This document shows positions 1,999 through 4,994 of a stretch of 64,000 nucleotides of DNA, one piece after another. The DNA lies in the NCBI GenBank assembly GCA_963422645.2, contig CAXXVO010000015.1:1-64000 (forward strand), in the 5' to 3' direction. Numbering within the stretch: the first letter of the stretch is position 1; every line of letters starts with the position of its first letter. The notes below the pieces were generated by a model. That model saw only the letters and a list, made by a program, of their open reading frames with translations, was not told the origin of the DNA and searched no databases. Origin of the DNA: Alphaproteobacteria bacterium. Its GTDB lineage: Bacteria > Pseudomonadota > Alphaproteobacteria > UBA828. A program made the position numbers and the translations under genes.

Positions 1999-2249
1999 CC
2001 AACTTTAAGCGAGAATTGAAAGTAACTGCCCAGGTTCTTGCTGTGAAAATTCGTAACTGCCCAGGTCGTCTGATTTGTCATTTTGGGCCAGTGGATTGAG
2101 GCGTTTCGTAACTACCCAGGTACCCCAATCCTGAGTTGAGGACGGTGATTATGGCGGCGGCCGCGGTCTGGTTCTGCCACCGCGATTGGTTCTTGACCTC
2201 ATAGAGTTGCGGGACTATGGACTGCTCTCTCGCGTGACGGGAGCGGTCC

Positions 2250-2915
2250 ATGGGGTATTTCGGCTCGAAGGCGACAGCAGGTCTGTGCCAAGCGCTGATT
2301 GCGCTGATGCCGCCGCACTCCGTCTACATCGAAAGCCACCTTGGGGGCGGGGCGCTGATGAAGCGCAAGCCGCCGGCCGTGCGTTCGATCGGCATCGACC
2401 GCGATGCGCAGGCGCTCGAGGCCTTCGTCTGCGACTACCCGGTCGATCTGGTTCACGGCTGTGCCCATGACTTCCTGGCCTCGTTCCCGTTCCTGGGCCC
2501 GGAGCTGGTTTACAGCGATCCGCCCTATCTGCACGCGACCCGCCGCTCGGCGCAGCGCTACCGCTTCGAGTACGAGGAGGCCGGCCACGTCGCGCTTCTC
2601 GCGCTGCTCAAGGCTCTGCCCTGCCAGGTCATGATCTCGGGCCATCCGTCGGCGCTCTATGACGAGGTGCTGGCGGGATGGCGCCGGCTGGCGCTGCAGG
2701 TCACGACCCAGGGTCTGGTGCGAACCGAGGTCGTCTGGTTCAACTACGCCCCCGACCGGATGCATTGGGCCAGCCACGCAGGCCGGAACTTCACCGACCG
2801 CCAGCGCATCAAGCGCAAGGCAGCCAACTGGGGCCGGCGCTACCAGGCCTTGCCGCCGGGCGAACGCCTCGCCGTGCTCGCCGCCATGATGGCCGTCGAG
2901 GCCGAAGACACGTGA
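2250..2915 (+). CDS. compact Dam/D12-class N6-adenine DNA methyltransferase (221 aa)
   Basis: YFGSK, YIESHLGGGA (motif I-like), YSDPPY (motif IV), MISG and RTEVVWFNY motifs. Confidence 0.88.
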   Translation: MGYFGSKATAGLCQALIALMPPHSVYIESHLGGGALMKRKPPAVRSIGIDRDAQALEAFVCDYPVDLVHGCAHDFLASFPFLGPELVYSDPPYLHATRRSAQRYRFEYEEAGHVALLALLKALPCQVMISGHPSALYDEVLAGWRRLALQVTTQGLVRTEVVWFNYAPDRMHWASHAGRNFTDRQRIKRKAANWGRRYQALPPGERLAVLAAMMAVEAEDT

Positions 2916-4450
2916 CGGTGTCGCACTGGCACGAAGACCTCGCCGCCCGTAACGAGGCCTTCTGCTGCCTGAAGGAGCTTCTCGAGCCATCATCCCTCGC
3001 AACCACTGTCGTCGTTGCCGTCCGGGAATGGGGGCAGGGGCTGCTGCGATCAGCCACCGCGCTCGCCCGGGAAAATGCCGCACTCGAGCAGGAGAACGCG
3101 GCCCTGCGCGAGCGCATCGCCGAACTCGAGCGCAGCGCGGCCCTCAACAGCACCACAAGCAGCAAGCCCCCCGCCAGCGACGGGCTCAAGAAGAAAAGCG
3201 GAGCCCAGAGGCGCACCCAAAGCCAGCGCGGAAAGTCCGGCGGGCCCAGTGGCGGCCAGCCCGGCCACAAGGGAACCACCCTCGCGCGGAGCGACAGCCC
3301 GGACCGTGTCGTCGATCACCACCCCTCCACCTGTTCCGGCTGTGGCGTCGAGCTCTCGGACGCCGACCGGCAAGGCGCGCCCGCCTGTCGGCAGGTCTTC
3401 GACGTACCCGAGCCGCAGCCTCTCGAGGTCACCGAACACCGCGCCCATCGCTGCCTCTGCGGCGCATGCGGCACGCTGACACGAGCCGCCTTCCCGCCGG
3501 GCGTCACCGCCCCGGTCCAGTACGGCCCTCGCATCACCGCTTGGGTGAGTTACCTGCTGTACGCCCAGTTCGTGCCCGAGAAGCGTCTGGCCGAACTCAT
3601 GAGCGACATCTTCGCGGTGTCCATCTCCACTGCCACGATCGCCGCCATGGGCCGGCGCACAGCGCAGCGCTTCGAGGGCTTCCTCGACCATGTCGCCGAT
3701 CTGATCCGCACGCAGGCGCCGGTCAAGCACCTCGACGAGACCGGCCTGCGTATCGCCGCCCGTACCCGCTGGCTCCATGTGCTGTGCACCCCGTTGCTCA
3801 CCGTCCTGCGCATCGGCGAGGGACGCGGCGATGTCGAAAAGAACCTGAAAGGCATCCTCGTCCACGACGACTTCGCCCCCTACTTCACCATCAAGGGCGT
3901 CCGCCACGGCGCCTGCAACGCACATCACCTGCGCGAACTCCAGGCCCTGATCGACATCGAGAAGGAGGAATGGGCGGCGAGCATGCACCGCCTGCTTCAG
4001 CGCGCGCGCAGGGCCGCCCGCTTCGCCCGTGAGAAAGACCGTCAAGTCCCCGCCTCCCTGGTGGCCCGCATCTCAAGGGCATGGGACCGTATCCTCGAAG
4101 AAGCCATCGCCTTCCATGAGGCCCAACCGCCGCTCCAGATCGCAAAGCGAGGGCGAAAGAAACGCCGCATCGGCCACAACCTCGCGCGCCGCCTTCAAAA
4201 GCATAAGGAGGGCTGCCTGCGCTTCCTCACCGACCTGCGCACGCCGTTCACGAATAACGAGGCGGAGCGTGACATCCGTATGAACAAAGTGCATGAGAAG
4301 ATCTCAGGCGGCTTCCGCTCCCTGCAAGGCGCCTGCAACTTCGCCGGAATGCGCAGCGTCATCGTCACCGCTCGAAAGCAAGGCTGGAACATCCTGCAAA
4401 TCCTGGCGCACCCGGAACCGATGCAGCTGATCCCTATACTGCGCTCCTGA
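2912..4450 (+). CDS. IS66-family transposase (single-ORF type)
   Basis: Coiled coil, NS..SSKPP.SD, GGQPGHKG, CxxC zinc finger, HLDETG, CNAHHLREL, TNNEAERDIR; GTG start overlaps MTase stop (GTGA); start inferred. Confidence 0.92.
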   Translation: MTVSHWHEDLAARNEAFCCLKELLEPSSLATTVVVAVREWGQGLLRSATALARENAALEQENAALRERIAELERSAALNSTTSSKPPASDGLKKKSGAQRRTQSQRGKSGGPSGGQPGHKGTTLARSDSPDRVVDHHPSTCSGCGVELSDADRQGAPACRQVFDVPEPQPLEVTEHRAHRCLCGACGTLTRAAFPPGVTAPVQYGPRITAWVSYLLYAQFVPEKRLAELMSDIFAVSISTATIAAMGRRTAQRFEGFLDHVADLIRTQAPVKHLDETGLRIAARTRWLHVLCTPLLTVLRIGEGRGDVEKNLKGILVHDDFAPYFTIKGVRHGACNAHHLRELQALIDIEKEEWAASMHRLLQRARRAARFAREKDRQVPASLVARISRAWDRILEEAIAFHEAQPPLQIAKRGRKKRRIGHNLARRLQKHKEGCLRFLTDLRTPFTNNEAERDIRMNKVHEKISGGFRSLQGACNFAGMRSVIVTARKQGWNILQILAHPEPMQLIPILRS

Positions 4451-4994
4451 ACTTCTCCGGCTCATCCTGAGTATCGCTGTCCTCTCATCTTGTTCGCGAC
4501 GCGGCGTTCATCATCCTCTCGCGCTCAAGAGAGTAGGCACCCCCGCGGCGTGGGGGCGTTGACGCAAAAGGAACTGGCTTGTTCCATAAGAGAGAGGGGG
4601 TACCTGGGCAGTTACGAAAATTCTCTGGGATTCGGCACAACGCTACCCACGCGACGCCCGTGTGCTCCTCTGTGGTCGCCGGGTTTCACAGCTCACGATG
4701 CCCCTCTTGCGGACTGCGACCGGTAAGCTACCCCGATGTGGCCCGAAGTCCGCCCGCGCGACGGGCACCGATTTTCATTCTATGGGGTGGTCCAGCACGG
4801 CGTCGACCATGATCGTTTATGAGAATGGCTCCGCTGTTGGAGAACCCGTGCCAGGTGAGCTTACGCGCACTTGACTGTTGTTAAGCGTGGAAAAGTGACC
4901 CCCTATTGGGGGTGATCGGCGTCCAAAATTGACCCCCTTGGATTTGTGTCCATGAACACACCTCGTCGTTTGGACGGACGGGGTGGTGGGGGAG

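Follow-up and report, generated by a model that had tools for sequence, protein, structure and literature searches.

The stretch of DNA analysed here (the window, 64,000 nucleotides of contig CAXXVO010000015.1 from the alphaproteobacterial assembly GCA_963422645.2) carries at positions 2108-4615 an insertion sequence (IS) of the IS66 family, 2508 bp in length, between whose inverted repeats there are only two genes, both on the forward strand: an open reading frame for a methylase-like protein of 221 amino acids (ORF1) and a transposase gene, with the stop codon of the former and the GTG start codon of the latter overlapping as GTGA. The bounds of the element, its right-hand end included, are fixed by the inverted repeats, and these as well as the gene content and the overlap are as described in an initial annotation of the window. 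The transposase matches DDE_Tnp_IS66 (PF03050, E = 4.4e-41) and DUF6444 in Pfam, with zf-IS66 falling just under the cut-off, and scores 289.7 bits against the IS66 equivalog model NF033517 of NCBIfam, for which the cut-off is 180. IS66-family elements are recognised by terminal inverted repeats and 8-bp target duplications, and both are found here together with the IS66-type DDE transposase. As only two ORFs fit inside the inverted repeats, the tnpA and tnpB genes of the canonical three-gene IS66 group are absent, which places the element in the single-ORF IS66 subgroup, to which it adds a cassette consisting of ORF1 and its upstream region. Judged from its sequence, it is an IS66-family element with an accessory, presumably regulatory cassette, a layout for which no published description was found: a check of the open literature, with ISfinder and subscription papers lying outside the search, returned no IS66 or other IS described with this gene.

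A BLAST search of the source genome recovered 36 full-length copies of the element with more than 99% identity, 22 of which are flanked by perfect 8-bp target duplications; ORF1 is intact in 34 of the 36 (a frameshift being found in two), and the transposase is 512 or 513 amino acids long, likewise in 34. A sister element, 82% identical and with the same two-gene layout, is present in 20 copies. This is a highly proliferative, intact IS66-family IS of the type without tnpA and tnpB. The four copies listed in the initial annotation (starting at 2108, 32572, 38470 and 41032) are all present, so that the annotation was right about each of them and undercounted the total. Its view that ORF1 moves as part of the IS is borne out by the 22 copies with perfect duplications, and the element has the organisation of a transporter IS, with the non-transposase ORF1 lying within the repeats and the duplications flanking the whole unit. 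Given the many copies of the element and the existence of its sister, the pairing of ORF1 with an IS66 transposase is no one-off capture, a possibility the initial annotation had named, and ORF1 transposes with the IS. By eye, the 22 target duplications look A+T-rich; the genome is 67% G+C.

ORF1 has the N-terminal GxK, GxG and DPPY motifs, with the motif I glycines at residues 32 and 34, DPPY at residues 90-93 and a basic tail at residues 184-198, and the motif positions, their spacing and the C-terminal tail had all been correctly noted before. A Pfam scan of ORF1 returned nothing at E ≤ 0.01, the PF02086 threshold thus not being passed, and the TIGR00571 (Dam) model gave 22.1 bits over residues 85-150, below its cut-off of 114.85; among relatives of ORF1 (loci carrying them are numbered with the prefix L), that of L080 passes the 22-bit cut-off of PF02086 with 34.6 bits, and those of L071 (17.5 bits) and L076 (19.2 bits) fall short. 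A profile of the family aligns with DpnM (E = 2.9e-10) and with E. coli Dam (E = 5e-6), in both cases in two blocks, profile positions 2-64 corresponding to DpnM 16-76 and positions 81-159 to DpnM 183-266. In this alignment about 106 residues of DpnM between the S-adenosylmethionine (SAM) block and DPPY correspond to about 16 in the ORF1 family, in agreement with the earlier observation that the target-recognition region of Dam is missing. An AlphaFold2 (AF2) model of ORF1, with a predicted local distance difference test (pLDDT) score of 92.1 and a predicted template modelling (pTM) score of 0.86, consists of a bare Rossmann core followed by helices 181-199 and 203-219, and its top Foldseek matches are Dam, DpnM, T4 Dam and Mcbe1, with template modelling (TM) scores of about 0.55. 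Prediction of an ORF1 homodimer (alignment A1) gave scores of 0.28 and 0.14, compared with a mark of 0.42. Taken together, the alignment and the model bear out the description of a Dam-like protein without the target-recognition region, whose methyl transfer to DNA adenine is putative.

The family to which this protein belongs is large. A word-indexed search gave 3706 matches to ORF1, with 70-100% identity among the 120 matches listed, and at 50% identity there are 5660 clusters with E ≤ 1e-3, 563 of them with E ≤ 1e-30. Its distribution is sporadic, a full-length member being found in only 3 of 401 sampled genomes of the phylum, and the IS-borne copies fetched come from many phyla at 69-100% protein identity. 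Residues G5, H23, G32, D90, P91, P92 and H113 are invariant in an alignment of 55 sequences, and Y93 is present in 52 of them; all 119 close relatives have DPP[YFWH], as do 112 of the 117 representatives that reach 200 amino acids or more. Among seven elements, the ratio of nonsynonymous to synonymous substitution rates (dN/dS) is 0.12-0.33 for ORF1 and 0.17-0.40 for the transposase, values at which ORF1 is under purifying selection.

Upstream of ORF1 all lineages have a common arrangement consisting of TTGAC, two bases, a 5-nt half-site, N10 and the complementary half-site, the last of which overlaps a -10-like hexamer (Table 1). A first scan found this architecture fixed in 78 of 80 loci, and its strict form is present in 121 of the 153 loci with enough upstream sequence. 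The 61 distinct promoters include 36 perfect 5+5 palindromes, 51 in which the inner four bases are kept and four with a symmetric double change in both half-sites, which is the pattern expected from selection by a dimeric DNA-binding protein. The promoter of the window copy was assigned because low-GC relatives carry the hexamers TTGACA and TATGCT at a spacing of 17 nt. The source genome contains 83 of the palindromes and, counting both strands, 79 strict promoter-context sites, with about 12.9 expected by composition; there is exactly one palindrome per element, and nearly all sites in the genome are in promoter context. Between the -10 and the start codon lies a hairpin whose arm sequences vary by lineage and whose 3' arm always covers the ribosome-binding site; for 60 distinct leaders compared with dinucleotide shuffles the median z was -2.39, with z below -2 in 40. 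An inverted repeat between -35 and -10 is also found upstream of Upf31, a plasmid-encoded relative of ORF1, and of two island-borne relatives, which makes a promoter-embedded palindrome a feature of the family as a whole. The cassette can therefore be described as a putative sigma-70-like promoter with a 5-nt/N10/5-nt palindrome, a leader hairpin and a 221-aa ORF of the Upf31 family, which are conserved as a unit.

The relationship to Upf31 extends over the full length of the protein and includes the C-terminal domain, which makes ORF1 a member of the Upf31 family: it is 45% identical to Upf31 of the IncP-1beta plasmid pBP136 over residues 1-218 (E = 8e-68), tail included. Plasmid relatives in general are 43-56% identical to ORF1, that of a Xanthomonas plasmid being at 56%, and in most cases (134 of 196 plasmid records) reside on replicons that are conjugative, upf31.0 of IncP-1beta being among them. 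Experimental data are available for Upf31 (Elg et al., Mol Biol Evol 2025, PMC11997246), and according to the sections of that paper drawn on here the protein represses its own promoter 50-fold in a xylE assay (from 4.76 to 0.09 XylE units), the upf31 transcript is 17.5-fold lower than in the knockout, autorepression depends on the C-terminal domain, and an inverted repeat in the promoter is put forward as the operator. In the same sections no methylation was found by GATC digestion, nor any signal from single-molecule real-time (SMRT) reads in a methylase-free strain, with methylation of other substrates being left open by the authors; the methods section describes the SMRT test as motif finding in a strain with the expression vector (PMC11997246). 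As the closest assayed homologue of ORF1, Upf31 thus speaks against the low-specificity methylase that had been envisaged in the initial annotation.

The cassette is found in front of different transposases. Using two family members as queries, we fetched 157 loci, many of them copies from the same genomes, in which the gene directly downstream encodes an IS66 transposase in 132 cases by BLAST and two more by Pfam, a DDE_5 transposase in 10 and an IS630 transposase in one, nothing recognisable being found in 12. These loci contain 82 distinct downstream ORFs, of which 55 were scanned with Pfam, near-duplicates and truncated ORFs being left out, and this assigned 43 to DDE_Tnp_IS66 and six to DDE_5. 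Within IS66 the partners are deeply diverged: at L071-L079, ORF1 is 69-71% identical to that of the window and the transposase just 26-31% identical. A third IS66 lineage (including L167) has a longer transposase with an IS66_C domain and a convergent TnpB_IS66 gene alongside the cassette; the idea that the cassette replaces TnpA/TnpB was discarded, since this lineage carries cassette and TnpB_IS66 together. The GTGA overlap of ORF1 and transposase holds throughout the IS66-A lineage, and in other lineages the two genes are separated by 4-70 nt.

The DDE_5 element (L064:3443-6226; also at L060, L061, L063, L065 and L066) is 2784 bp long, has perfect terminal inverted repeats and is flanked in six of six copies by a 5-bp target duplication that reads CTNAG; it also holds a divergent DUF3024-like ORF of 94 amino acids and is a genuine mobile IS carrying the cassette. 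A quick maximum-likelihood tree groups the DDE_5-linked proteins in one clade (value 99) with the IS66-linked proteins of the window lineage and splits the whole IS-borne clade from the plasmid relatives at 96. Among the seven elements compared above, dS is lower for ORF1 than for the transposase, which fits a more recent exchange of the cassette. The cassette is thus portable, serving deeply diverged IS66 transposases and an unrelated DDE_5 element.

IS630 was considered as a third partner family and rejected, as the 828-bp cassette (94% nucleotide identity) is all that L056 and L059 have in common, and the IS630 gene that follows in L056 was probably inserted later. These two loci, from one genome, are solo cassettes (3867-4692) in which the left IS end is degenerate and the 221-aa ORF intact, and they are not followed by a transposase of their own. 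At L082, L083 and L143, family members that are not part of an IS adjoin a gene for an Ogg-type helix-hairpin-helix (HhH) glycosylase, and L143 retains the IS-type promoter palindrome.

The explanation we favour, with a probability of roughly one in two and by analogy with Upf31, is that ORF1 is an autorepressor which sets or limits the expression of the ORF1-transposase operon. The protein, probably a dimer, would bind to the palindrome of its promoter and so repress the operon, which would allow a burst of transposase on entry into a repressor-free cell and then hold expression low as copies accumulate. Since the parent and sister elements have the same half-sites, they would be expected to regulate each other in trans in the source genome. 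The leader hairpin would add a second layer, by blocking the translation of read-through transcripts begun outside the IS; own-promoter transcripts are predicted to start about 7 nt past the -10, inside the 5' arm of the hairpin, and would consequently escape the block, leaving only read-through silenced. We infer autorepression from the conserved and regularly spaced candidate operator, the symmetric half-site changes, the promoter repeats of the plasmid and island relatives, the self-repression of Upf31, the anatomy and mobility of the element, the portability of the cassette, the purifying selection on ORF1 and the hairpin.

Several observations weigh against autorepression or against parts of it. 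The mechanism of repression is carried over from a single homologue, Upf31. A consensus promoter scan of positions 2050-4700 called no promoter, and the -10 of the window copy (TATGGA) is weak. The Dam fold itself comes first only marginally among the Foldseek matches, with E = 2e-7 as against 5e-7 for unrelated class I methyltransferases, and the read-through-blocking role of the hairpin depends on a predicted transcription start. The main argument against is that SAM and DPPY residues so nearly invariant (D90, P91 and P92 in 55 of 55 sequences) are hard to square with a pure repressor, and this keeps a self-methylating switch alive as a rival.

Under this rival explanation, which is possible but doubtful, ORF1 would be an active N6-methyladenine (m6A) methyltransferase whose main or only targets are adenines of its own promoter palindrome, with full methylation or hemimethylation at the -10 setting the level of transposase and coupling it to replication, so that control of the type exerted by Dam on IS10 would be carried into any host. 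Besides the SAM and catalytic motifs, which are almost invariant family-wide, it is favoured by the presence of adenines in each half-site, by the overlap of the right half-site with the -10 and by the near restriction of the palindrome in the genome to these promoters. Both methods applied to Upf31 found no methylation in the sections of the study consulted (PMC11997246), although the motif finding used for SMRT data could have overlooked a target present at very few sites. The protein also has no target-recognition region, its core and tail being no more than candidates for reading the sequence. A fuller version, in which a dimeric Dam-type enzyme both reads and methylates its own promoter half-sites and thereby exerts replication-coupled control via hemimethylation as a portable epigenetic switch, is rather doubtful; if true, its autonomy would explain its repeated recruitment by unrelated transposase families and its occurrence alongside massive IS blooms in symbiont-like genomes.

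It is improbable that the cassette is kept merely as a donor of a host-independent promoter and translation start, or as a hitch-hiker, with its protein having no role in transposition. The range of genes that it precedes (IS66, DDE_5 and DDE_Tnp_1 transposases and an Ogg-like glycosylase) and the persistence of the intact solo cassettes L056 and L059 in the absence of a transposase are what would be expected of such a donor; however, the dN/dS of ORF1 indicates selection on the protein, the ORF has stayed intact in 34 of 36 copies, and a bare promoter needs no 221-aa ORF kept at 70% identity or more across phyla.

The initial annotation had proposed a cofactor recruited by the transposase, or a marker of IS ends, in which ORF1 would be delivered to the ends by the transposase and would methylate or shield these or the transposition intermediates. 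The GTGA overlap throughout the IS66-A lineage suggests co-production of the two proteins, and the tail of ORF1 is basic, but the proposal is quite improbable in the light of the comparisons above. Nearly the same protein, at 69-85% identity and from one clade, serves IS66 transposases only 26-31% identical to that of the window as well as the unrelated DDE_5 family, and that so similar a protein works with such diverged transposases argues against a specific protein partner; the genes are separated by gaps in other lineages, and the cassette coexists with TnpB_IS66 in one of them. The genome-wide palindrome census moreover found neither the palindrome nor any other shared site at the IS ends, the sole conserved symmetric site being that of the protein's own promoter. 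Very improbable, finally, is a broad anti-restriction methylase of low specificity that shields incoming DNA, a role suggested for orphan methylases from plasmids and phages: relatives do occur on conjugative plasmids and the target-recognition region is lacking, but broad methylation would have shown plainly in the SMRT test of Upf31 and is absent from the results consulted (PMC11997246), an IS riding inside other replicons has little to gain from protection, and the low, autoregulated expression implied by the promoter palindrome fits badly.

Table 1. Positions in the window of the IS66-family element, its parts and its further copies.
Feature	Position	Strand	Remarks
IS66-family element, copy 1	2108..4615	+	full length, without target duplication
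Left terminal inverted repeat	2108..2126	+	19 nt, begins GTAAC; 18/19 match to right end
Predicted cassette promoter	2193..2221	+	-35 TTGACC 2193-2198; half-site CATAG 2200-2204; half-site CTATG 2215-2219; -10-like TATGGA 2216-2221
Leader inverted repeat	2224..2244	+	GCTCTC...GGGAGC; 3' arm over Shine-Dalgarno, 6 nt before ATG
ORF1	2250..2915	+	221 aa; predicted Dam-fold protein of the Upf31 family, no target-recognition region, C-terminal two-helix basic tail
IS66-family DDE transposase	2912..4450	+	512 aa, GTG start at 2912
Right terminal inverted repeat	4597..4615	-	18/19 match to left end
Copy 2	32572..34950	+	2379 bp; ORF1 intact; 139 bp of transposase replaced by 10 bp (33804-33813), zinc finger removed
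Copy 3	38470..40848	+	deletion variant as copy 2; perfect 8-bp target duplication (38462-38469 / 40849-40856)
Copy 4	41032..43539	+	full length; ORF1 with M37T

In the window, ORF1 is intact in all four copies, three being identical and the fourth differing by the one substitution, and this is so despite the deletion in two of the transposases, as the initial annotation had pointed out. The copies at 32572 and 38470 share the transposase lesion, a net loss of 129 bp that is in frame and removes 43 amino acids with most of zf-IS66, and the resulting zinc-finger-less deletion derivative is thus represented twice (32572-34950 and 38470-40848), its two copies being one base apart. As the copy at 38470, the only one in the window with a perfect 8-bp duplication (also correctly noted before), has a fresh target duplication, the derivative has probably been mobilised in trans by full-length copies.

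This same copy is inserted within the end of an IS1595/ISXO2-like element (window 1149-2081; 38440-38470), whose end begins with the same 14 nt as the IS66 element's right inverted repeat. Several IS66 copies without duplications have flanks that derive from the IS1595/ISXO2-like repeat, which suggests recombination between copies. The IS66 element is itself split, for example at G000:C18:4988-7499 (L182) and on other contigs, by an IS of about 2.5 kb with a Transposase_29 protein (PF21804, apparently frameshifted), at one and the same coordinate, with 10 of the fragments beginning at position 2071 of the element and four ending at 2076. A cassette-free single-ORF element of the IS66 type, with a transposase 60% identical, is present in two copies at about 43.6-45.2 kb and 48.5-50.0 kb. 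Further repeats in the window belong to one family with four copies at 8450, 10893, 35178 and 37621 (8312-11192 and 35040-37920) and to another with four copies, three of which are exactly 1768 bp apart (27177, 28945 and 30713, within 23521-31332). The window is an IS nest.

Insertion sequences are usually thought to carry only what mobility needs, and a regulatory module shared across unrelated IS families, as is proposed here, would point to a general and transferable way of controlling transposase expression. The cassette also ties in a large uncharacterised family, upf31 included, whose members are routinely annotated as 'DNA adenine methylase', and if the role of a promoter-bound regulator suggested here applies to them, thousands of such annotations may need correction or completion. 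The source genome, with about 56 copies of the two sister elements, offers a natural test of whether IS expansion is held back or made possible by the cassette.

The closest known system is Upf31 itself, which like ORF1 is annotated as a DNA adenine methylase and shares with it the DPPY and GxG motifs, the basic C-terminal helices and an inverted repeat in the promoter. Upf31, however, is encoded by a plasmid backbone gene with other repeat sequences, and its action is proposed, in the sections consulted, to proceed through KorB (PMC11997246), whereas ORF1 heads a transposase operon within an IS. The same source assigns Upf31 the motif order of group beta (PMC11997246), while in the present alignment motif I comes before DPPY, the order found in Dam. 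With Dam, DpnM and T4 Dam (the D12 class), ORF1 has in common the two-block profile match and the GxK, GxG and DPPY motifs; it differs in lacking the DNA-reading region, some 100 residues that separate the SAM block from DPPY in Dam, in falling below the Pfam and TIGRFAM thresholds and in having an extra C-terminal helical hairpin, its methylase activity being putative. As an IS, the element resembles those of the ISBst12 type, reportedly the single-ORF subgroup of the IS66 family in the grouping of ISfinder and Gourbeyre et al. 2010, in its DDE transposase of the IS66 type with a coiled N-terminal region and zinc finger, its 8-bp target duplication, its inverted repeats beginning GTAA and its lack of tnpA and tnpB, and differs from them by the addition of a conserved 5' cassette that is translationally coupled to the transposase.

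As regards its putative regulation, the nearest parallels are IS10 and IS50, in which transposase expression is controlled by Dam and protected by fold-back structures, and IS1, whose InsA is an IS-encoded repressor. The present element resembles these in having a candidate regulatory site that overlaps the -10, an RNA structure able to hide the ribosome site and a putative element-encoded limiter of transposase synthesis, but the candidate regulator or methylase is here encoded by the element itself, as part of a module common to unrelated IS families.

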